From a virus (Duplodnaviria > Caudoviricetes), in the IMG/VR virus record IMGVR_UViG_2926068284_000002, positions 1 to 64,000 of that record: a stretch of DNA of 64,000 nucleotides. The stretch is one strand, 5' to 3'. The notes below the pieces were generated by a model, which was not told the DNA's origin, did not search any database, and was given only the letters and a program-made list of their open reading frames with translations. This document shows positions 18,626 to 32,892 of the stretch, piece by piece. Position 1 is the first letter of the stretch; each line of letters begins with the position of its first letter. Made by a program: the position numbers and the translations under genes.

Positions 18626-19150
18626 ATGAATAGCAAGATCCTTAAGGCGGGGTTCCTCACCGCCTACGTGGCCACCATCCCCGTCGCGAACCTCCTCGTC
18701 GCCCACTTCGGTGCCGTCCCCGTCGGGTTCGGTGAAGCCGCCCCGGCCGGTGTGTACATGGTCGGTCTGGCCCTCGTCCTGCGGGACCTGGCCCGGGAAA
18801 CGGCCGGCCGGGCCGCGGTGTGGGCGGCGATCGGGGTTGGTGCGGTCCTGTCGTGGTGGCTGGCCGACCCGGCCCTGGCCGTGGCTTCGACGGCGGCGTT
18901 CGTGGTGGCGGAGTCCATGGACTTCGCCGTGTACGAACCTCTTCGCCAGCGGGGCCTGCTCGTCGCGATGGTTGCCTCGAACGTGGTGGGCATGGCCGCG
19001 GACAGCCTGATCTTCCTGCACCTGGCGTTCGGCAACTTCGACTACCTGGCCGGGCAGCTCCTCGGCAAGGCGTGGATGACCCTGGCCGCGGTCGCCGTCC
19101 TCTCTACGATTCGCGCGGCACGCCAGCCTCGACAGGGGGCGGCACTGTGA
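18626..19150 (+). CDS. VUT/YhhQ-family (queuosine precursor) membrane transporter-like protein
   Basis: Multi-TM protein with ANL, LRDL, ASTAAF..AES.DF.VY, ASN.VG..ADS.IFL..AFG, GQLLGK motifs. Confidence 0.78.
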   Translation: MNSKILKAGFLTAYVATIPVANLLVAHFGAVPVGFGEAAPAGVYMVGLALVLRDLARETAGRAAVWAAIGVGAVLSWWLADPALAVASTAAFVVAESMDFAVYEPLRQRGLLVAMVASNVVGMAADSLIFLHLAFGNFDYLAGQLLGKAWMTLAAVAVLSTIRAARQPRQGAAL

Positions 19151-19962
19151 CCCGCTTCTACCTCGGCGTTCCCCCCGGCTGGCTCAAGCGCCCCGAGTTC
19201 ACCGGCATACCGATGTTCGTGTCGAACCGGCCCCTCTCAAAGGTGAAGACACTGGAGCCCGCGGTCGGACCGACAGCTGTGGACTCGGCCGGGTTCTCCG
19301 AGCTCGACGAACACGGCACCTGGGACCACGGGCCCACCCCCCGCCAGTACGCCGCCCAGATGGCCCGCTACCGGGACGAGATCGGCATCGACTGGGCCGC
19401 CCCGCAGGACTGGATGTGCGAGCCCTGGATCATCCAGAAGACCGGGCTGACCGTGCTGGAGCACCAGCGGCGCACCATCGGCTCCTACCTCGACCTGAAG
19501 GCAATCGACAGCACCTTGCCGATCGCCCCGGTCCTGCAAGGCTGGGAGATCCCGGAGTACGAGCGACACATCAGCATGTACGAAGCTGCCGGTGTCGACC
19601 TGCGCGCCCAGCCGATCGTCGGCATCGGGTCGGTTTGCCGCCGCCAGGGCACCCGTGAGGCTGCCGACCTGGTACGCCGGATCGCGGACTACGGGATCCC
19701 GCTCCACGGCTTCGGGTTCAAGATCGACGGTTTGCGGACTGTTGGTGACCGGTTCACCTCTGCGGACTCCATGGCCTGGGCTTACGCCGGCCGCCGTGAA
19801 CCGGCCGGCTGCGAATACCGGTCGCCCGGATCGCGTGGCCCGCACAAGAACGAGGCCAACTGCCCCCGCTATGCCCTGGTGTGGCGGCAGAAGGCGCTGG
19901 CAGCCCTGCGGGTCAGTCAGAACGCCCCCTGCCAGTTGTCTCTCGATCTGACCGCCGTATGA
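19147..19962 (+). CDS. TGT-fold guanine transglycosylase-like (DpdA-like) protein
   Basis: VDSAGF, PQDWMCEP, PVLQG, GIGSVCRR, LHGFG, SADSMAW motifs; GTGA-coupled to the VUT gene. Confidence 0.72.
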   Translation: MTRFYLGVPPGWLKRPEFTGIPMFVSNRPLSKVKTLEPAVGPTAVDSAGFSELDEHGTWDHGPTPRQYAAQMARYRDEIGIDWAAPQDWMCEPWIIQKTGLTVLEHQRRTIGSYLDLKAIDSTLPIAPVLQGWEIPEYERHISMYEAAGVDLRAQPIVGIGSVCRRQGTREAADLVRRIADYGIPLHGFGFKIDGLRTVGDRFTSADSMAWAYAGRREPAGCEYRSPGSRGPHKNEANCPRYALVWRQKALAALRVSQNAPCQLSLDLTAV

Positions 19963-20042: not shown

Positions 20043-20696
20043 ATGCCCGACACCTCACCCACCCCCGCTGACCGCCCCGCCGACCAGCTGCGCGCCGCCT
20101 TGGGTCGCGCCACCGAGCTGCACGAGCGCTTCGAGGGGAGCACCTGCGGAACCTGCGCCGACGCTGACGGCCAGGCCGCTGCGTGGCCCTGCGAGACGGC
20201 ATCCGCCCTGGCGGTGGCCCGGCAGCTCCTCGGCACCACCGAAACCGAGGGTGGCGAGGACACGATCGGCCTGTGCGGGTACTGCGGCGTCCCCCGCGAG
20301 ACCCACCACCACGGGTACGTCTCCACGGCAGCCGCGCTGGCCGCCGCGCCGCACCACATCACCGCCGCCCCGCCCGCGCCTGCCGACCGGGCCGCCGTGC
20401 TCCGCGAAGCCGCCGACCTTCTGGCGGAGCTCGGCACGCCCATCTTCGGAGAGCGGTCGGAGCACGAGCGGGGCTTGATGTACGGCGCCGAGCGCCTCCG
20501 CCGTCTGGCCGGTGAGGCTGCCGCCGGGGCACACCACCCCGAGCAGGCGCAGCCCGAGGTCGTCCAGTGCGGCGCCCAGGTCTTCACCATCGGCTGGCAC
20601 TACGCGCACGACTGGATCCCGCAGCCCGGCATGACCCCGGTCCGCTGCCCCGGCACCACCCCCGCTGTTCCTGCCGCGCCCGAGGAGACCCAGTGA
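20043..20696 (+). CDS. Mosaic phage hypothetical protein
   Basis: GGAG RBS; CxxC modules and PADRAA linker. Confidence 0.6.
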   Translation: MPDTSPTPADRPADQLRAALGRATELHERFEGSTCGTCADADGQAAAWPCETASALAVARQLLGTTETEGGEDTIGLCGYCGVPRETHHHGYVSTAAALAAAPHHITAAPPAPADRAAVLREAADLLAELGTPIFGERSEHERGLMYGAERLRRLAGEAAAGAHHPEQAQPEVVQCGAQVFTIGWHYAHDWIPQPGMTPVRCPGTTPAVPAAPEETQ

Positions 20697-21079
20697 CCAC
20701 GCCCGTCCGTATCCAGCGCCGCCGCACCAAGGGGTGGCGGCTCCCCGACAACGCCGTCATCGTCAGCCGGCCGTCCCGCTTCGGCAACCCGTTCCTGATC
20801 AAGGACGCCATCGAGGCCGAGATGGGCGAGCCCCGCAGCGCCTGCGCCTCCAACTATGCCGACTGGCTGCGGGTCGGCACCGCAGGCGGCTGGTACGAGG
20901 AGACGTACCGCGTCGGCCGCCAGGTTTTCGACCGCCGCCGTGTCCTCGACGAGCTGCACACGCTGCGCGGCCGCGACCTCGCCTGTACCTGCCCGCTCCC
21001 CGAACCGGGCGAGCCGGACCACTGCCACGCCGCCGTCCTCCTCGACCTCGCCAACCGCCCCGCCCCTGCTGCCGGGTGA
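20693..21079 (+). CDS. DUF4326-domain protein
   Basis: RIQRRRTKGW..RPSRFGNPF..LRGRDLACTC..CHAAVL. Confidence 0.85.
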   Translation: MTTPVRIQRRRTKGWRLPDNAVIVSRPSRFGNPFLIKDAIEAEMGEPRSACASNYADWLRVGTAGGWYEETYRVGRQVFDRRRVLDELHTLRGRDLACTCPLPEPGEPDHCHAAVLLDLANRPAPAAG

Positions 21080-21336: not shown

Positions 21337-21399
21337 CCCCTGTCTGCTGTGTGGCCGCCCCACCACCGGGGCGGCCCCCAACCCCGGAAGGACCCGACC

Positions 21400-21690
21400 G
21401 TGCGCCTGCCGACCGACGTCATCGAAGCCCGCCTCAACCACCTCATCGACCGAGCCCGACGCCACCGGCTCCTCGAGGAGGAAGCCGACCGGTTCACCAC
21501 CGAACTCCGCGACCTCGTCCGCCGCCTGGAGGACGAGGAAGACGCCAGCCGCCGACTCCTCGTCCAGCGGCAGGAGATGGCCGCAGAACGCTGGGCGTGG
21601 CAGGAGCGCGGCGACCGCGCCCAGGCCCGTGTCCGCGAGCTGGAGGCCGAGGGGGCCCGCCTGACCGCCGGGCGCGCGCCCACCACCTGA
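21400..21690 (+). CDS. Coiled-coil hypothetical protein
   Basis: GGAAGGA RBS, GTG start. Confidence 0.55.
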   Translation: MRLPTDVIEARLNHLIDRARRHRLLEEEADRFTTELRDLVRRLEDEEDASRRLLVQRQEMAAERWAWQERGDRAQARVRELEAEGARLTAGRAPTT

Positions 21691-21706
21691 CCCCGGACAC
21701 ACCGCA

Positions 21707-21731
21707 GCCCCCACCCAGACGGGTGGGGGCC
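21707..21731. terminator. Hairpin between convergent genes
   Basis: gcccccaccc-agac-gggtgggggc. Confidence 0.55.
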
Positions 21732-21747
21732 GCTTCGCGCGTGGGGT

Positions 21748-22623
21748 TCACCGGCGCCAGACGTTGACCCTCTCCGTCGACAGCAACGGAGCCCCCTCCG
21801 GGCCCTTCATATGCGCCGGCACCCACGTCTGGCGGCGCAACGACCGCTCCGGTCCGTAAGCCTGGTTCCGCCAGTGACCGGACACGATCCACCGGTTCCT
21901 GTACGTCCGCTGATCCGTACCGGCGTCCGGGTCACGGTCCTGCGGGGTGTACTGGCGGCGCAGGTCCACAATGCTCACCTCGGGGGCAGGCTGGCCGTCC
22001 CGGGCGTAGGCGCGTGCGGTCGGCTTGTCCGCGCGCTCTTGGGTCCGGTCGATGAGGAGCGGCTGCTGCATCATCAGCCAGGCGGCAGCGAGCGCGGCCA
22101 CAACGGGCTGCGGCAGACCCGGGTCGAGGTCCGCCAGAGACAGTGGCTCGCTGGTCACGGGAAGCGTCGCGCCATAGATCGGAATCAGGGGCGGGACTTG
22201 ATCCTCAACGATTTCGAAGTGCCCGCGGCGCGCCGTTTCCGCAGAGAGCCGGGCACGGGACATCAGCAACCAGAGCAGCATCCCGCCCTCGCATGGACCC
22301 CAAGCGCACGCCTCAACGGGGATCTGCACCCCCTGCGCATCGATATGCCCGATGCCGTCCTGCCAGTACAGCAGCCCGCACGCCGATGGCCGATCTGCTG
22401 TTGCCCACCGGGCCGCAGCAAGCTGCGCCCCGGAATGGACGGCGAGAGCAGCCATGTCCTGGCCAACCCAGAACAGGTTGGCCTCTTCAAGGCTGAGGGT
22501 GAGCGCGTCAAGGCCGGACTTGGTTGCTGCGCTGGTTTTTGATCGGAGATGTGACTCCGGATCGTTCAGGAAACGCAGCGTCTGGCGCCGCACCTTCGGC
22601 ATCTGTGAGGGCCGCATCGTCAC
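21748..22623 (-). CDS. Hypothetical protein, last gene of the Aca2-like operon
   Basis: 291-aa ORF coupled to the HTH gene; C-terminal VSGHWRNQAYG...HMKGP motif; atypical codons. Confidence 0.7.
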   Translation of the reverse strand: MTMRPSQMPKVRRQTLRFLNDPESHLRSKTSAATKSGLDALTLSLEEANLFWVGQDMAALAVHSGAQLAAARWATADRPSACGLLYWQDGIGHIDAQGVQIPVEACAWGPCEGGMLLWLLMSRARLSAETARRGHFEIVEDQVPPLIPIYGATLPVTSEPLSLADLDPGLPQPVVAALAAAWLMMQQPLLIDRTQERADKPTARAYARDGQPAPEVSIVDLRRQYTPQDRDPDAGTDQRTYRNRWIVSGHWRNQAYGPERSLRRQTWVPAHMKGPEGAPLLSTERVNVWRR

Positions 22624-23051
22624 GAAGCGCCCTTGTCGCTATCCGGCTGCGGGTAGGCGATGGCGAGGCCCGGCACGTCCTGTGCGATACGGGCGACGAC
22701 CGCTCTGTGCCAGGACGCGGGGAACGGGATCTCGGGGTGCGCGGCGTGGTACTCGGCATCCGTCCGGTACGTGAACACCCCGGGGTCGGGGACGTCGAGG
22801 AGCTTGCTGACGACGCCCGAGATGAACGCCGCGGTCCGGGCCTCCAGGTCTTCCATTTCCAGGCGCACCCCGTCCGGGATGGCGTACTTGCCGGCCTCCC
22901 AGTGCCGGACCGTCCGGGCGGACACTTTGAGGTGATCGGCCAGCGCCTCGGGGGTGAACCCCAGGTACTCGCGGACGACCCGGAGTTCGGCGTCCGTCAT
23001 CCGCTCGTCCTCGGGCATGCCGGGCGGGTCGGTATAGGCGGGGCTGGTCAT
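22620..23051 (-). CDS. Aca2/YdiL-like (DUF1870) HTH regulator
   Basis: MTDAELRVVREYLGFTPEALADHLKVSARTVRHWEAGKYAIPDGV plus C-terminal YRTDAEY...WHRAVVAR domain. Confidence 0.72.
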   Translation of the reverse strand: MTSPAYTDPPGMPEDERMTDAELRVVREYLGFTPEALADHLKVSARTVRHWEAGKYAIPDGVRLEMEDLEARTAAFISGVVSKLLDVPDPGVFTYRTDAEYHAAHPEIPFPASWHRAVVARIAQDVPGLAIAYPQPDSDKGAS

Positions 23052-23118
23052 CGTGAAGCCTTCCGGTTACGAAGTGTGGCCCCCAGCCGGTAGCTGGGGG
23101 CCAGGCGGCGGTGTGGTG

Positions 23119-23634
23119 TCAGTCGTCGTTGGTGTGGGTGTGCCGGTCCAGCTCGGCTGCCATCTTCGTCAGCTCCTCGATCCCCTGCGCGTAGGCAATC
23201 TTGGCGGCCTCGACCGTGTCGTAGGGGGTGGTCTCGCTGAAGGAGTCCCCGTCCCACACGGTGACGAGCCGGTGGTCGCGGATGACGCCGCAGGTCGCTT
23301 TCCGGCAGTCGTCCTCGCACTCCTCGGCGTCGCCCCATGCCTCGTAGTCCGCCGGTGTCCAGTGCGCGGCCAGGGCGGCGACTGCGGAGTTACGGACGTG
23401 CTCGCAACCGGACTTCTTGCCGCCGCAGTACGTGCCTGCCGGGGAGAAGCGGATGGCGGGCCCGTCGGTGAGGGCGAGGGTGGTGGCGGTGGTGGCGGTG
23501 GTGTCGACGTTGTAGAGGGTGCCCTCGACCCAGAGGCCGCCGGTCCAGTCCAGGGGGCCTTCGGCGGCGTCTTCGGCGGTGGCCGGCTGGTGGGTGTTCA
23601 TCAGGTAGGCGAGCGAGGAAGAGCTGGTGATCAT
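23119..23634 (-). CDS. Acidic hypothetical protein (anti-defence candidate)
   Basis: 171 aa, GGAAGGA RBS, D/E-rich. Confidence 0.65.
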   Translation of the reverse strand: MITSSSSLAYLMNTHQPATAEDAAEGPLDWTGGLWVEGTLYNVDTTATTATTLALTDGPAIRFSPAGTYCGGKKSGCEHVRNSAVAALAAHWTPADYEAWGDAEECEDDCRKATCGVIRDHRLVTVWDGDSFSETTPYDTVEAAKIAYAQGIEELTKMAAELDRHTHTNDD

Positions 23635-23693
23635 GTCCGGTTCCTTCCGGGTGAGCCCGGGGCTGTTCCCCGGGCTGGGGTGGGTGGTGTGAC

Positions 23694-24209
23694 TCAGAGG
23701 GCGGCGGTGGCGGTACGGATGCCAGCGATGACGGCGGACCAGACCTCGTCGCGGGAGGCGACGCGGGACTCGTCGTACCCGAACCGGCCGTGGATCTTGC
23801 CGTCTGCGGAGTCGAACCACACCTTGTCGATCGAGCCGAGGAGCTTGTACGCCTGGGAGTTCGAGATGCCCTCGCCCTGGTAGGAGGCGGAGGAGATGTT
23901 CCCGGTGTTGTAGTGGGTGGTCTCGATGCCGGCGAAGGCGGCCCAGTTGTTGATGTAGACGCGGTCCATGCCGTTGCGCTGCCACCGGTTTCCGCCGATC
24001 GCGACCATCGTCTCGATGGAGTAGACGATCGGGCGGGCGGTGCGCTTCATGGCGCCGATGGCAATGCGGCGGGCAAGGGAGGTGGTGTCGATGATCCACC
24101 GGCCGGCGGTCTTGGTGGCGGCGATGACACCGCGGCGGGCCCAGGTGCGGATGGTTGCGACGGTGACGTTCGCGGTCTGGGCGGCCTTAGCGGCAGTGGT
24201 GGTGTTCAT
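23694..24209 (-). CDS. HTH-fused hypothetical protein, first gene of the operon
   Basis: N-terminal MerR/Xis-like HTH (VTVATIRTWARRG); GGAAGGA RBS. Confidence 0.75.
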   Translation of the reverse strand: MNTTTAAKAAQTANVTVATIRTWARRGVIAATKTAGRWIIDTTSLARRIAIGAMKRTARPIVYSIETMVAIGGNRWQRNGMDRVYINNWAAFAGIETTHYNTGNISSASYQGEGISNSQAYKLLGSIDKVWFDSADGKIHGRFGYDESRVASRDEVWSAVIAGIRTATAAL

Positions 24210-24263
24210 CGCCGGGTCCTTCCGGTGGGGTCTGGGGCTGTTCCCCTGACCTCATGACAACAA

Positions 24264-24293
24264 CAGTAGCTTCCAGATCTGGAAGCTGGCAAG
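24264..24293 (-). promoter_or_regulatory. Promoter with a perfect 20-bp palindromic operator in its spacer
   Basis: Minus strand TTGCCA-18 nt-TACTGT; AGCTTCCAGATCTGGAAGCT at 24268..24287. Confidence 0.75.
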
Positions 24294-24390
24294 GGGTGTC
24301 ACCCAAAAGAGTGAGAACCCATCAGAAAACCCAGCTCACAGCCCTAAACCTGCCAAGCTCACCCCGCCCAGACCCCAACCAGGAGCCCTC

Positions 24391-24639
24391 ATGACCCCCT
24401 ACGCCGAGCTCGCCCAGCACCTCGACACTGCCCTCGCCGACGACCCCACCCCGCAAGCCGCCGCACACCGCGCAGCCATCACCACCTGTACCCAGCTCCT
24501 CGACATGGGCCACCCCGAAGACGACCCGCTCGTCACCAGGTACCGGGAAGGCATCCTCGGCGGCATCCTCACGCCCATCGCCACCCTCTACGCCCACACC
24601 CCCGGCTTCCCCACCGCATGGCGGCACGCCGGTAGCTGA
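24391..24639 (+). CDS. Small hypothetical protein
   Basis: AGGAG RBS. Confidence 0.55.
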   Translation: MTPYAELAQHLDTALADDPTPQAAAHRAAITTCTQLLDMGHPEDDPLVTRYREGILGGILTPIATLYAHTPGFPTAWRHAGS

Positions 24640-24723
24640 GGCCACACCAAAGCCGCGCCACCTGGCGACCGCCGAGGAGGAAACCGCTGACAGGGCGGCC
24701 GAGGCTGCGGTAAATATGCGCCC

Positions 24724-25341
24724 ATGCCTGTCACCGCACTAGATGCAGCCACAGATGTCCTTACCCGAGCCCGTCAGCTCATGGCTCTGGATGCTGCGCC
24801 CACCCCGGCCGCTACTCGCGAAGACATCAGACGTGCCGCCCTAGCCCTCGGCGTCGCAGCCGTCGACACATACATGCACTGGGCTATTCGCAAAGTCGCC
24901 TTCGCTGACCCTCTGCCCAAGGAACTGGCCAGACTTGAAGTCCCCTTTGGGGCCATGCTGGACATCGCGAACGCCTCGGTCGAGGCGCGCAAGCAGGGCA
25001 TAGCCCACCGCCCTCAGGTGAAGGCCCGAAACGTCATGAACGAGAAGCTCCTCACCATGACGTTTCAGTCCCCAGCCGGCGTCGAGCGAGGCCTGCAGAT
25101 GCTGGGTATCTCGAAGTGCTGGGCAAAGCTGTCCGCCGCCATCCAGCCTCAGGCCACAACAACGGACCTGAAGGCACGGCTGGGGCAGATCGCGCACCGC
25201 CGCAACAAGATCGTGCACGAGGGAGATTTGGCCCGCCAAGACAGGCCCCGGGAAGTTAAACGGGAGACCATCAGTGCAAAGGAAGTCCACGACGACCTCA
25301 ACTGGATTGAATCTTTCATTAAGGCCCTGGCCTCCCTTTGA
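24724..25341 (+). CDS. HEPN-domain protein (putative RNase), moron
   Basis: RNKIVH Rx4H motif, all-helical, lower-GC codons, own promoter and terminator. Confidence 0.72.
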   Translation: MPVTALDAATDVLTRARQLMALDAAPTPAATREDIRRAALALGVAAVDTYMHWAIRKVAFADPLPKELARLEVPFGAMLDIANASVEARKQGIAHRPQVKARNVMNEKLLTMTFQSPAGVERGLQMLGISKCWAKLSAAIQPQATTTDLKARLGQIAHRRNKIVHEGDLARQDRPREVKRETISAKEVHDDLNWIESFIKALASL

Positions 25342-25394: not shown

Positions 25395-25802
25395 TCAGCG
25401 GGGGAGCGCCTCGTCGAGGTACTCCTGCACGGGCCCGAACAGCCCATACGGCACGTACTCCGGGATCTCCCCGTGCCCGATCCACGCCACTGCGGCAATC
25501 TCCTCAGCGTCCCCGACGACCGCATCCCCGGAGATCAGCTCGCACGCCACATACGACATCGGCACCCCAGTCTGCGGGTGCACCCGGTCACCCAGGACCC
25601 GGGCAGCCTTAACCTCCAGGCCGACCTCCTCCGCCGTCTCCCGCACCGCAGCCTGCTCCGGGGACTCCCCTGCCTCGATGCCGCCGCCAGGGAACGCCCA
25701 CAGCAGCTTCCCCTCCCGCTGCCGCCGCCGGATCATCAGCACCCTCCCGCCGTCGACGATGATCGCCGTGGAGACGGGGGGCTGGACACTCTGCTCGGTC
25801 AC
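25395..25802 (-). CDS. Nudix hydrolase
   Basis: GGGIEAGESPEQAAVRETAEEVGL Nudix box. Confidence 0.9.
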   Translation of the reverse strand: MTEQSVQPPVSTAIIVDGGRVLMIRRRQREGKLLWAFPGGGIEAGESPEQAAVRETAEEVGLEVKAARVLGDRVHPQTGVPMSYVACELISGDAVVGDAEEIAAVAWIGHGEIPEYVPYGLFGPVQEYLDEALPR

Positions 25803-26437
25803 GCTGCCTCCAAGGCACTCAAGATCGGCGGGTAGATGTTCTCGGCCGGGATGAAACGGGTCAGGCTGGCGAGGGGCACCCAGGCGACGTCCATGTTCTC
25901 GACCGCGTCCAGGTTGCTGGCCTCGCCGGCGAGATAGTCGCAGAGGACGTAGCTGGCCAGCACCCGGGTTTTCGGGTGGACCCGTGTGCCGAGCTCCTCG
26001 CGGACCGCGACGTGCACCCCGGTCTCCGCGTGGGTTTCCTGCACCGCTACCGACGCCGCGGCGGCGCCCGGCTTGCACATCCCGGCCGGGAACTGCCAGG
26101 ACAGGTTGTCGTCGCCGCGCCGGCACACCAGGAGCACCTCGGTGCCGCGCAGCACCACGGCGATAGCAACCCGGAGCGCCTGCGTCTCCGCCTCGGCAGG
26201 CTCCTCGGGCGGGCGGGACAGGAGGGTGAAGCGGCGTCTCACGTGTTCGTTGGCCCTCTCGTAGGTGGTGTCGAGGGCCTGCTGCATCTCGGTGCGCGGC
26301 ACGATCTCCGGGTTCCTGTGCCAGCCGGCAACGGTGCGAACCGCCACCCCGAGCTTCGCGGCGAAGCCCTCGTTCGTCATGCGGAGCGCGGCCTGCAAGG
26401 CGCAGGCGGTGCGGCCGGTCCACGTGGTGACGTTCAC
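25799..26437 (-). CDS. HTH-Nudix fusion regulator/hydrolase
   Basis: N-terminal XRE HTH plus degenerate Nudix box (PAGMCKPG...VQETHAETGV). Confidence 0.82.
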   Translation of the reverse strand: MNVTTWTGRTACALQAALRMTNEGFAAKLGVAVRTVAGWHRNPEIVPRTEMQQALDTTYERANEHVRRRFTLLSRPPEEPAEAETQALRVAIAVVLRGTEVLLVCRRGDDNLSWQFPAGMCKPGAAAASVAVQETHAETGVHVAVREELGTRVHPKTRVLASYVLCDYLAGEASNLDAVENMDVAWVPLASLTRFIPAENIYPPILSALEAA

Positions 26438-30036: not shown

Positions 30037-30609
30037 ATGAGCACTGCTGCCGACCAGGGATGGGACTGGGCTGGACCCCAGACGAAGCAGCCCACCATCC
30101 CGCCCAGACCCCGCACCGAACCCACCAACGGGCCGGGCGTGAACAACTCGACGAACCGCACCGGAGGTGCGTTCGCCCCGTCCCTCGGCTTCGCCGTCAA
30201 CAAGACCACCGTCGTCAACGGCGGCCCCGGCGGAACCCGTGGCCCGGGGCGCGGTGCCGGCGGGAAGGTCCCCGGCTCCGACTTCATGTCCAACGAGGAC
30301 ATCAGGGCGTTCTGCGAGTACCTGCGGAAGGACTCCCGGAACCGGGCCACCGAGCGGGCCATGGACGCCGACCACCTCGAAGCCGTCCTCCGCACCATCC
30401 CCGACGCCAGCGGCAACCTTCACGGATCCCGCGCCCGCGCCCGGCGGGTGGCCCGCTGGCTGAGGAAGGTTGCCGCCGCCGAGAAGGCCATCCAGAAGTA
30501 CTCGGCGATGATCTACGGCACGTTCGAGCGGGAGTACGAGTCCGACCTGCGGAAGGTCGGCAAGGGCCGCCACCAGCCCCCGCGCGCCACCAAGTTCGGC
30601 TGGCGCTAA
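30037..30609 (+). CDS. TraA-like plasmid transfer accessory protein
   Basis: FMSNEDIRAFCE...RARARRVAR pattern; position before TraB. Confidence 0.55.
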   Translation: MSTAADQGWDWAGPQTKQPTIPPRPRTEPTNGPGVNNSTNRTGGAFAPSLGFAVNKTTVVNGGPGGTRGPGRGAGGKVPGSDFMSNEDIRAFCEYLRKDSRNRATERAMDADHLEAVLRTIPDASGNLHGSRARARRVARWLRKVAAAEKAIQKYSAMIYGTFEREYESDLRKVGKGRHQPPRATKFGWR

Positions 30610-30641
30610 CACCCCGACCACCACTTCCCCTGGAGCCCGCT

Positions 30642-30866
30642 GTGAAGCAGACCTGGACCGCTACCACGATCGCCGAAGCCATCAACATCCTCGACGCCGC
30701 TACGAAGCAGCTCGAAGCGCAGGCCCTGGCCCTGGAGCCCGGCGGCTTCCACGAGCGCAAGGAAGCCGAACGCCAGACCCCCATCCACCTCGCCATCGAG
30801 TTCGACCTCACCGACCTCATCCGGCGGATCACCGACAAGCACCAGGCCCGAGCCCTTAACGGCTGA
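30642..30866 (+). CDS. Small hypothetical protein
   Basis: GGAG RBS, GTG start. Confidence 0.5.
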   Translation: MKQTWTATTIAEAINILDAATKQLEAQALALEPGGFHERKEAERQTPIHLAIEFDLTDLIRRITDKHQARALNG

Positions 30867-30894
30867 CCACCCCACCTGATCAGGAGCTATCCCC

Positions 30895-32892
30895 GTGGCT
30901 GACAGCCAGAAGGCCGACCTGTGGAAGGCCATCAAGCACCCCCGCATGAGGCCCTGGCTGACAGTCGCCGCCGAGGTCCCCGCCACCTTCGCCTCCCACC
31001 ACTACTGGGGCGACTCCGTACCCGCCGCGATCGGCCTCACCGTCGCCGCAGGTGTACTCACCGCCGCCACCTGGTGGGCAGGCGAGGGGACCCGGCCCGG
31101 CCGGCGTATCCACGCCACCCTGTCCACCGGCCTCGGCACCTCCTACCTCGTCGTCGGCACCGCCGTCGGCCCGTTCGACCCGGCGCTCGCCTCCACACTC
31201 GTCATCGGCGGCGCAGTCGCCGCCGGGTCGTGGAACATCCGCCAAGCGTTGCGCGTCAACGTGGACCCGCAGAAGGAAGGCGGCAACGCCGAGACCGGTG
31301 TCCTCGTCAAGGCCATCGGCGACGCCAAGGTCGCCCTCCGCGGCAAGCCGAAGGTCGAACCCAACAAGGTCACCGTCCCGCTTCAGCTGTCCGCCGGGCA
31401 GGTCACCTCCGACGACCTCGGCAACCGCATCAAGCACATCGCCGGAGAACTCGGCGTGTCCCCGACCAGCATCCGTGTCATCCCCGACCCCGACGACGCC
31501 GCCCGAGCCACCCTCGTCGTCGTCCCCAAGGACGAACTCAAGCAGCCCACCACCTGGCCCGGCCCATCCGCTCCGGGCGGCAGCATCACCGAGCCCGTCA
31601 TCCCCGGCATCTACGAGGACGGCGAGGAGGCCCAGCTGTGGTTCCCCGCCGGACCCGGCCGGAACGCCACCCACTTCCTCACCGCGGGCATGAACGGCTC
31701 GGGGAAGTCCGCAGGTCAGTCCGTCGCCATCACCGAAGCCCTGACCCGCCGCGACGCCATCGTGTGGGCCGTCGACCCCAGCAAGGGAATGCAGACGTTC
31801 GCTCCGTTCCTCCCTCACCTGGACTGGGTCGAGATGACCGAAGCTGGCGGCAACGAGATGATCGACGCCCTGTCGCAGGTCATCACCGCCCGCGCCAACG
31901 AGCTCGGCCGTCACGGCTTCAAGAACTGGACTCCGCAGGCCCACGACCAGCTCGGCATGCCGTACATGATCGTGTGGATCGAGGAGGCTGCGAAGTTCTT
32001 CCGCAACGGCACCGAGATGGAAGGCTTGGTCATGGAGGCCCGGTCCGCCGGGATCAGCGTCATCATCAGCCTCCAGCGTCCCTCCGCCACCAGCATGCCG
32101 ACCGACGTTCGTGAGCAGCTCGGCGGTGTCCTCTGCTTCGGCGTCAAGGGCTCCACCACCGCCGACATGGCCCTCCCCGACGACGTCCGCGACGCCGGCG
32201 CCCGACCCGAAGCGTGGGAGAACCGCAAGCCCGGCTACGCCTACCTCGTCGCCCCCGGCGTCGACGAAGACCGCTACGCCACCCCCCTGCGCACCTACCT
32301 CATCGACGACGACCAGATCACCGGGGCCCTCTCCATCCTGCCCCGCACCCCCATCGACCCCGTCACCGCCGCAGCAGCCGGTGACGCCTACGCCAACCGC
32401 ACCCGATACGACGCTGACACCCCTCTGACCAGCAGTGACAGCCCACGACAGGAGACCGTCACCATGACAAAGGACGACGCCCAGGCCGCCGAGAAGGCGC
32501 TACTGGAGAAGCAAGTCGACCGCGAGATCGACGCCATGGTCGGCGACGACCCCGACGACGACGGGTACGTGCCCGACGTCGACGCCGACCAGGAGATCGC
32601 CCCACCGGCCGAGGTGTGGTCGTTCGGGCCGCCCCAAGCCCCCGTCGAGGAGAAGACGCCGGAGGCCGGCATGGAGGCCCTGATGGCGATGCTCGCCGAG
32701 TTCCGGGCGGAGGAGCGGGAGTTCATCGGCCCGAAGGACTTCGGCCCGTTCGGGAAGGGCCAGCGCATCGGAAGGTCCCGTTCCTGGGTGTCAGGAGCCC
32801 TCGGAGACCTGTCAGATGGCGGGATTCACCTGTCAGAAACCGACGATCCGGGGGTCTACAGGCTGCTGTACCCGGAGCTGGCGGAGGTCTGA
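30895..32892 (+). CDS. traB: TraB-type FtsK/SpoIIIE conjugative DNA translocase
   Basis: N-terminal TMs, GMNGSGKS Walker A, VWIEEAA Walker B, ARSAGISVIISLQRP, C-terminal wHTH (GRSRSWVSGAL). Confidence 0.85.
   Translation: MADSQKADLWKAIKHPRMRPWLTVAAEVPATFASHHYWGDSVPAAIGLTVAAGVLTAATWWAGEGTRPGRRIHATLSTGLGTSYLVVGTAVGPFDPALASTLVIGGAVAAGSWNIRQALRVNVDPQKEGGNAETGVLVKAIGDAKVALRGKPKVEPNKVTVPLQLSAGQVTSDDLGNRIKHIAGELGVSPTSIRVIPDPDDAARATLVVVPKDELKQPTTWPGPSAPGGSITEPVIPGIYEDGEEAQLWFPAGPGRNATHFLTAGMNGSGKSAGQSVAITEALTRRDAIVWAVDPSKGMQTFAPFLPHLDWVEMTEAGGNEMIDALSQVITARANELGRHGFKNWTPQAHDQLGMPYMIVWIEEAAKFFRNGTEMEGLVMEARSAGISVIISLQRPSATSMPTDVREQLGGVLCFGVKGSTTADMALPDDVRDAGARPEAWENRKPGYAYLVAPGVDEDRYATPLRTYLIDDDQITGALSILPRTPIDPVTAAAAGDAYANRTRYDADTPLTSSDSPRQETVTMTKDDAQAAEKALLEKQVDREIDAMVGDDPDDDGYVPDVDADQEIAPPAEVWSFGPPQAPVEEKTPEAGMEALMAMLAEFRAEEREFIGPKDFGPFGKGQRIGRSRSWVSGALGDLSDGGIHLSETDDPGVYRLLYPELAEV

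Follow-up and report, generated by a model that had tools for sequence, protein, structure and literature searches.

A candidate anti-defence operon of the acr-aca2 type, with a predicted DNA operator and repeated RNA hairpins, on a Streptomyces phage-plasmid

What might be the role of a short leftward transcription unit that lies among rightward genes of a Streptomyces prophage and carries, as its third gene, a relative of the phage repressor Aca2? The question is raised by four genes at positions 24209–21748 of a stretch of DNA (the window) that comprises bases 1–64,000 of the 84,744-bp IMG/VR provirus record IMGVR_UViG_2926068284_000002 (~69% G+C), where an original prediction had placed a candidate anti-defence operon with a DNA operator and repeated RNA hairpins. 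The explanation favored here, which we hold to be probable though by no means assured, is that this is a self-contained operon of the acr-aca2 type (acr, anti-CRISPR) residing on a Streptomyces phage-plasmid. Its regulatory part, consisting of a putative Aca2-type autorepressor, an operator in the promoter spacer and a duplicated two-hairpin leader, is well supported, and the assignment of its cargo to anti-defence is plausible; the binding and inhibitory activities of the operon products are all ones that we infer from sequence.

The leftward four-gene operon of the original prediction is present in full, as open reading frames (ORFs) on the minus strand: g1 (24209–23694, 171 aa), g2 (23634–23119, likewise 171 aa), g3 (23051–22620, 143 aa) and g4 (22623–21748, 291 aa, with a GTG start). 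Rightward genes flank this unit on both sides, the G+C content at third codon positions (GC3) of the four genes is 0.84–0.94, as high as in real genes of the same genome, and the stop codon of g3 and the GTG start of g4 overlap in the sequence GTGA. Between g4 and the convergent plus-strand gene at 21349–21690 lies a bidirectional terminator hairpin of 13 bp without a T-run (21704..21733), for which RNA folding gave −46.7 kcal/mol (z −5.7, none of 200 shuffles being as good). In this terminator region 45 nt (21687–21731) share 95.6% identity with the 90-kb record of Streptomyces phage ZL12; the remainder of the locus has no DNA match in that phage.

The third gene had been recognized as Aca2/YdiL (DUF1870) by eye, and a profile search has since put this on a firmer footing, as g3 scores 32.8 bits against Pfam PF08965 Aca2_YdiL (cut-off 23.8, E 8e-8) over profile positions 1–93 of 118. 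Its residues 17–108 match the solved structures of Aca2 from Pectobacterium phage ZF40 (8w35, 7vjo and 7b5j; chain 4–96 of 120, E 3e-10 with phmmer), a match that covers the helix-turn-helix (HTH) and most of the C-terminal domain, and tblastn placed g3 on phage ZF40 at 19253–19573 (E 3e-10, 32.5% identity over 79% of the query). By these matches g3 is a real Aca2 homologue. Arg46 of g3 aligns with Arg30 of Aca2, the Arg of V-S-A-R (numbering counted from the printed alignment), and the substitution R30A is reported in the available excerpts of PMC6765145 to abolish repression by ZF40 Aca2.

Upstream of g1, the predicted promoter (24263..24292, minus strand) has a −35 hexamer TTGCCA (24292–24287) and a −10 hexamer TACTGT (24268–24263) separated by an 18-nt spacer. 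As originally described, the spacer is filled by a perfect 20-bp palindrome, AGCTTCCAGATCTGGAAGCT, at 24268–24287; it is the sole match in the window even when up to three mismatches are allowed, and none of 100 shuffles gave one. The −10 form of Streptomyces housekeeping promoters is TAnnnT, which TACTGT fits, and the promoter call is supported by related loci, since the TTGnnn/TAnnnT layout is conserved there at the same spacing. The arrangement recalls phage ZF40, whose inverted repeat IR1 (TTCG-N6-CGAA) overlaps the −35/−10 region according to the excerpted PMC6765145; here likewise a 4–5-bp core with an N6–7 spacer lies between −35 and −10.

The same arrangement recurs well beyond the window. 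A scan of IMG/VR with the g3 protein found 17 loci, the phages Gilgamesh and P1312 came from GenBank, and in all 19 of these protein-found loci a leader motif lies upstream, its conserved part reading GTCATGA-GGTCAGGGGAACAGCCCCAGACC-...-CCGGAAGGAMCCGG-...-ATG. Constant upstream of the first gene are a −35 of the TTGCGC/TTGACG type, an inverted repeat, TAnnnT and the leader, and variable are the neighbours, g1 homologues being present in five of the 17 IMG/VR loci, g4 in three and g2 in none. An earlier scan with an operator pattern was too unspecific (at least 116 stretches, only five of them with the leader after filtering) and was replaced by a scan with the leader core, which yielded 30 IMG/VR stretches and 39 stretches of species-representative genomes. 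These stretches come from Streptomyces, Cellulomonas, Microbispora, Streptosporangium, Brachybacterium, Buchananella and other genera. Once duplicates had been removed, together with 12 hits lacking a promoter or inverted-repeat context (loci L141, L172, L174, L176, L179, L189, L192, L193, L194, L196, L199 and L202, most of them non-actinobacterial), 53 leader instances were left. Among the 43 instances whose downstream sequence extends for 1 kb or more, 41 have an Aca2-like gene, a median of 434 nt beyond the leader; the exceptions are L005, where it lies ~3.5 kb downstream after a second leader copy, and L195, with only 1,044 nt of downstream sequence to examine. The beginning of an Aca2-like gene is also visible in three shorter instances, which brings the number of operons to 44. 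Promoter, operator, two-hairpin leader and variable cargo with aca2 recur across the Actinomycetota.

To which protein does the palindrome belong? The spacer layout (G)CTTCC-N6–7-GGAAG(C) is found in 30 of the 44 operons, that of the window included, and goes with a recognition helix S-x-R-T-V-R-H-W or close variants; the remaining 14 operons have inverted repeats of other classes. CCCCACA/TGTGGGG (L191, L182, L160, L203 and L155, with the additions L185, which has a related CCCC/GGGG repeat, and L151, which is truncated) goes with R-x-D-T-L-R-R-W, and CACCC/GGGTG (L164, L197, L154, L184 and L167) with N-P-R-T-x-R-S/A-W. The switch from Arg to Asp between helix classes falls at the position equivalent to Aca2 Arg30, and this covariation of half-site and helix is what one would expect to see were the half-sites read by the Aca2-like protein. 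The attribution of the palindrome to the Aca2-like protein as its predicted operator is supported, the operator type travelling with the Aca2-like gene and not with g1. The product of g1, the first gene in eight of the 44 operons, was considered as the operator binder and rejected, because the inverted repeat persists in the spacer of the 36 operons that lack g1.

Between promoter and coding sequence lies the leader, which in front of g1 (24207..24259, minus strand, start codon at 24209–24207) folds into two hairpins, HP1 (24251–24229) and HP2 (24225–24212). In the RNA fold, HP1 pairs GGTC-A-GGGG with CCCC-A-GACC around the loop AACAG, and HP2 has the form CCGG/AAGGAC/CCGG, with Shine-Dalgarno-like purines in the loop. 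The hairpins had been described as repeated, and they are: a second copy of the two-hairpin module precedes g2 (23632..23676, minus strand), with 39.1 bits (E 4e-11) in a covariance model that was built from 47 leaders including leader 1 (77.8 bits) and with leader 2 outside the training set. In this copy the outer stem of HP1 is AGCC/GGCT instead of GGTC/GACC, a compensatory change. Scanning the window with the model gave two matches, leaders 1 and 2, the next best reaching only 13.8 bits, and over 60 sources there were 68 matches, including loci without the exact search pattern (L002, L014, L017, L018 and L020); further internal leader copies occur in L010, L012, L198, L005, L021, L159 and L162. 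Compensatory changes were seen in eight of the 12 base pairs of the leader, the observed covariation score was reached by none of 500 shuffles, and 94.6% of cells pair in the model-fitted leader alignment as against 19.5–66% in slid controls. The stem of HP2 takes different forms by clade (CCGG/CCGG, GTCC/GGAC, CGGC/GCCG, CTCCG/CGGAG, CGACT/AGTCG and TCGG/CCGA). When the HP2 region was folded one sequence at a time, just 13 of 41 unique tails did better than 95% of mononucleotide shuffles. The energy of individual folds is thus weak evidence, and it is the changes in its stem that argue for HP2. An Rfam scan of 21500–24700 returned nothing meaningful (best E 5).

The idea that the leader is a genome-wide "start-associated sequence" was ruled out, as the window has no more than two exact copies of GGGAACAGCCCC, and both belong to the operon. 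A 12-bp GC-rich hairpin of another kind lies between g2 and the ribosome-binding site of g3 (23077..23103, minus strand; z −3.4, one of 200 shuffles being as good), and by visual, uncounted reading a GC hairpin of differing sequence stands at the position upstream of g3 in most related loci. In the groups of Thermobifida phage P1312 and of Microbispora (L005, L021, L092, L159, L162 and L171) the leader has two HP1-type hairpins in tandem, and some loci of these groups have two Aca2-like genes.

If the regulatory part is constant, what does it regulate? Between leader and aca2 the 44 operons encode 56 proteins of 19 families (one cargo gene in 33 operons, two in eight), with a median length of 111 aa and a median isoelectric point (pI) of 4.09, 75% of them having a pI below 5. 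The 32 proteins encoded immediately downstream of aca2 are longer and basic (median 221 aa, median pI 9.4) and also belong to 19 different families, g4 standing there in only five of 44 operons. The expectation that homologous aca loci swap their cargo is borne out by the 19 upstream families, and invariance of the cargo is refuted. An instructive negative case comes from the 94-kb circular plasmid CP109520.1 of S. anulatus (L205, 42406–44397), which at the same site and with the same flanks as in the window carries g1 and g4 together with a 194-aa cargo gene of a "TSYGTW" family, whose product is extended at its C-terminus by a basic stretch; this site has no aca2 and no leader match by the covariance model, and its spacer palindrome differs (TGATGTACGTACATCA). 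Regulator and operator appear to have been swapped as a unit. Genes just after aca2 in other relatives (L008, 5736–6194; L198, from +1562 onward; L007, 5426–6187) encode Ros/MucR zinc-finger proteins, a protein with a SocA/Panacea domain and, in L198, a helicase that is longer than 646 aa and resembles the DEAD/DEAH type at its start.

Among the cargo of the window, it is g4 that comes closest to a known anti-defence protein. It matches phrog_15934 (E 5e-39), and its family is very large, numbering 6,786 representatives when matches up to E 1e-3 are counted. Homologues that are 75–81% identical carry Pfam PF26125 in precomputed annotation; this family is named AcrVA2-like in the ESM Atlas, is found on 28 of the 30 clusters nearest to g4 (top score 0.98), and in three of these clusters 17–46% of members carry it. 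The AlphaFold2 model of g4 has a mean predicted local distance difference test (pLDDT) value of 79.1, with low confidence in the C-terminal 70 residues, and its top three fold matches among 350,542 chains of the Protein Data Bank (PDB) are AcrVA2 (7ci1/7ci2; E 1e-3 to 7e-3, probability 0.75–0.93). Because of PF26125 on the ~80% identical homologues, the 28 of 30 Atlas clusters and these three folds, g4 is classed as AcrVA2-like, a predicted assignment. Conservation of the motif G-H250-W-R252 is at least 90% among 101 diverse relatives; from its similar relative position the motif may correspond to H286/R288 of AcrVA2, and it has no His at +5. Searches of PADLOC, NCBIfam and PDB sequences gave nothing for g4, nor did any toxin model match. 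According to the available excerpts of bioRxiv 10.1101/2022.11.29.518452, AcrVA2 binds the nascent N-terminus of Cas12a and causes the loss of Cas12a mRNA, for which the C-terminal residues H286, R288 and H291 are needed; its homologues occur widely on mobile elements, in most cases where Cas12a is absent, and include FinQ, an inhibitor of F-plasmid transfer. In phi16 (gp029/gp028, L003) and BigBern1 (36/37, L004), temperate phages of Corynebacterium and Bifidobacterium, the g4 homologue is overlapped by the start of the next gene, which encodes ~290 aa; the pair lies near the integrase or the lysis region and has no Aca2-like gene beside it.

The gene directly upstream of aca2, in what may be called the acr position, is g2. 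Its product is acidic (pI 4.5, net charge −17), and since five Cys, His79 and His91 are invariant in it, a metal-binding site may be inferred. It has no match in Pfam, PHROG, PADLOC, NCBIfam or the PDB, and a search of the ESM Atlas gave no usable match. Homologues are rare, numbering only seven among 5.8 billion clusters, and every one with a named source is from Streptomyces; in Streptomyces sp. t39 (L186) a g2 homologue is the sole cargo between leader and aca2.

The product of g1 is of another kind, basic (pI 10.3) and with a confident AlphaFold2 model (pLDDT 91.7), in which Foldseek matched the N-terminal 50 residues to BldC (6amk_B) with a template-modeling (TM) score of 0.84 on target, a root-mean-square deviation (rmsd) of 1.3 Å and a probability of 1.00, and also to HiNmlR and RacA. 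Pfam HTH_17 scores 24.3 bits, just under its cut-off of 27, and MerR is also below cut-off; the C-terminal alpha/beta domain matches uncharacterised viral proteins (E 6e-6), and there are 525 homologues, mostly from Streptomyces. As modeled, the N-terminus is a winged HTH of the MerR/BldC/excisionase type, fused to a phage-specific domain. The original claim that the cargo is anti-defence is plausible: g4, which falls in the AcrVA2-like family, speaks directly for it; g2 has no match and g1 is of DNA-binding type.

The element on which the operon resides is best described as a phage-plasmid, because related Streptomyces records of 85–94 kb that carry terminase, capsid and TraA/TraB genes have been deposited as plasmids. 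The terminase, P22-type capsid and tail genes of such plasmid-deposited records of 85–93 kb are 73–75% identical to the window in the 28600–50000 region, and TraA/TraB of the plasmids of Streptomyces sp. W75 and W9 match ~30270–32445 at 82%. The provirus thus looks like a phage-plasmid with a TraB-type transfer gene.

How the parts might work together can be proposed as follows. The housekeeping-type promoter TTGCCA-18-TACTGT would drive a single g1-g2-g3-g4 transcript ending at the hairpin 21733–21704. The g3 product, presumably a dimer, would bind the spacer palindrome, so that transcription would be shut off once g3 has accumulated. If ZF40 Aca2 is a guide, the two-hairpin leaders before g1 and g2 are probably bound by it as well, which would limit translation of the cargo, the ribosome-binding purines being in the loop of HP2; upstream of g3 itself stand a hairpin of another kind and a separate ribosome-binding site. 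The cargo would serve in conflict with host defences or with rival mobile elements, and g4, by family analogy, would recognize the nascent peptide of a target protein and cause the loss of its mRNA.

Several points weigh against this interpretation. A promoter scan with the E. coli-type consensus does not call TTGCCA/TACTGT, because TACTGT matches only three of the six positions of TATAAT. The covariation of operator and recognition helix could reflect shared descent. The alignment used for leader covariation was itself fitted to the structure of the model, and the sequence of HP1 is nearly unchanged across all operator classes; HP1 is therefore not read by base contacts that distinguish operators, and it is tied to Aca2 less firmly than HP2 is, with the qualification that in the larger set the invariance of HP1 is partly forced by the search pattern. 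The global fold match of g4 to AcrVA2 is weak (TM 0.31–0.35, rmsd 15–16 Å), profiles of 72 and of 101 g4 relatives searched against the PDB gave no AcrVA2 match at E up to 10, and the PF26125 label comes from homologues and nearest clusters, not from a score of g4's own. Even within that family, "anti-CRISPR" may be the wrong label for g4, because AcrVA2 homologues are mostly found without Cas12a and FinQ blocks conjugation. Finally, g1, being basic and of DNA-binding type, is not a typical anti-CRISPR protein (Acr), and since most downstream partners are of DNA-binding type too, a regulatory role fits them as well.

Some of these points lend themselves to a different explanation, which we regard as unlikely: that the operon serves inter-element exclusion or fertility inhibition instead of anti-defence, the resident phage-plasmid expressing it to hamper rival plasmids or phages, with g4 acting like FinQ, g1 as a DNA-binding interference factor, and the Aca2-like protein only keeping expression low. 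The inclusion in the AcrVA2 family of FinQ, and the absence of Cas12a beside most homologues, reported in the bioRxiv excerpts cited above, agree with it, as do the plasmid-like nature of the prophage with its TraA/TraB-like genes, a neighbouring HEPN_RiboL-PSP gene of a kind typical of defence (see below), the production of ZF40 Aca2 in lysogens (excerpted in PMC6765145) and the presence of g4 homologues in the lysogeny or moron regions of the temperate phages phi16 and BigBern1. The same cassette, however, sits in the 129-kb phage Gilgamesh between the genes for the small terminase subunit and lysin, the upstream cargo is mostly small and very acidic, as known Acr proteins and DNA-mimic inhibitors are, and a strong autorepressed promoter of early type fits a burst of expression on entry.

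Less credence still is given to a module of the phage life cycle (host takeover or lysis-lysogeny), in which the Aca2-like protein would be a switch like Cro/CI, g1 and the downstream DNA binders regulators, and the small acidic proteins anti-sigma-like or binders of host factors. The BldC-type domain of g1 would suit this, BldC being a developmental regulator of Streptomyces, and the downstream partners do include Ros/MucR zinc-finger proteins (six operons) and multi-HTH proteins; Aca2/YdiL-like proteins are also known from non-acr contexts in what is available of PMC8434428. Yet the position of the cassette varies by phage (beside lysin, beside integrase, or between replication and packaging genes), even close relatives differ in their whole cargo through replacement, which is typical of accessory genes and not of core circuits, and g4 belongs to an Acr family. 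A pair resembling a toxin-antitoxin system, with the Aca2-like HTH protein as a HigA/MqsA-type antitoxin and the translationally coupled g4 as toxin, is very unlikely indeed. In its favor, g3 and g4 overlap at stop and start, an overlap of the aca2 stop with the following gene is seen in 14 of 37 operons, and g3 weakly matches MqsA- and HigA-type antitoxin models at the HTH level. Against it, the downstream partner is unconserved (19 families, many DNA-binding, and none adjacent in some operons), g4 is present in the S. anulatus plasmid, phi16 and BigBern1 although these have no Aca2-like gene, and it matches neither PADLOC nor toxin models.

An acr-aca2-type operon therefore remains the preferred explanation, and its architecture is one already in print, at least as far as PMC13551039 is available in excerpt. 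There, ZF40 Aca2 is described as binding two conserved hairpins of the 5′ untranslated region (5′UTR) and blocking translation, and an "actino-motif" (citing Birkholz et al. 2024) as lying upstream of acr-aca2 operons, with RNA motifs also between genes and with DEAD/DEAH helicases often following aca2. The operon in the window agrees with that class in having a promoter DNA motif followed by a two-hairpin 5′UTR and inter-gene motifs, with a helicase after aca2 in the related L198, and, going by that description, the HP1/HP2 module is likely the published actino-motif. A literature search for "actino-motif" found PMC13551039 as its sole match, and one joining Aca2 and Streptomyces brought up no paper on such operons among the matches listed.

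With the acrIF8-aca2 operon of ZF40 the operon shares the regulator family, a short-core inverted repeat at −35/−10, cargo upstream of aca2 and 5′UTR hairpins beside the ribosome-binding site. It differs in host phylum, in its operator core (CTTCC as against TTCG in ZF40), in having two cargo genes upstream and one downstream, in the duplication of the leader module inside the operon, and in that none of its cargo resembles AcrIF8. With the AcrVA2/FinQ family (PF26125; 7ci1, 7ci2), g4 shares a similar length (291 aa compared with ~296–313 residues for the solved chains) and carriage on mobile elements, and its conserved H-x-R motif near the C-terminus may have a counterpart there, whereas the host of the present element is unlikely to have Cas12a. 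A further counterpart is gp86-gp87 of Streptomyces phage Gilgamesh, where gp87 is 72% identical to g3, a small gene of unknown function precedes it, the operator is CTTCC-AAATTT-GGAAG and the leader scores 28.3 bits; in contrast to the window, the single cargo gene there is of another family, and g1, g2 and g4 are lacking.

The operon is thus a good, but not an unprecedented, source of candidate anti-defence genes. Its value lies in concrete candidates, in an AcrVA2-like gene under predicted Aca2 control in Streptomyces, and in the pairing of operator class with recognition helix, whose variants offer a natural specificity table for Aca2-type repressors. The anti-defence genes of actinophages are almost unexplored, and Streptomyces is a natural-product workhorse whose defences often block the delivery of phages and plasmids. 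The succession of a spacer inverted repeat, an HP1/HP2 leader and an Aca2-like gene provides a search handle, which has given 44 operons and 19 families of upstream cargo to test, and an AcrVA2-like gene in a host group unlikely to have Cas12a makes a tractable case for finding the target of that family. A tentative and on balance doubtful proposal goes further: g2 and the sister small-acidic families F0 (23 members) and F2 (seven members) may inhibit actinobacterial defences that have no known inhibitor (e.g., Streptomyces type I CRISPR-Cas, Pgl/BREX or the sensing of 7-deazaguanine DNA), and, separately, HP1, which stays fixed while HP2 and operator follow the Aca2 clade, may act as an additional regulatory RNA element, recognized by a host factor or by a surface of Aca2 that is conserved, whereas in the ZF40 model the RNA mimics the DNA half-site.

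The surroundings of the operon contain further genes of related character. Beside it lie genes for a Vut_1-type transporter (18626–19150), DpdA (19147–19962, Pfam E 2e-66) and a DUF4326 protein (20693–21079), which together correspond to a 7-deazaguanine DNA-modification set, so that the element probably modifies its own DNA; such self-modification would be a separate anti-restriction measure. On the promoter side, a divergent plus-strand ORF (24724–25341, 205 aa) matches HEPN_RiboL-PSP at 29.3 bits (cut-off 28.4); it was not picked up by the GC3-based gene caller and could serve the resident element in defence or abortive infection. Two adjacent Nudix genes follow on the minus strand (25395–26437), the first of which (25799–26437) has an N-terminal extension of HTH-like appearance. 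On both sides, these neighbours fit a region of conflict genes, and the Nudix pair recurs in the related locus L008.

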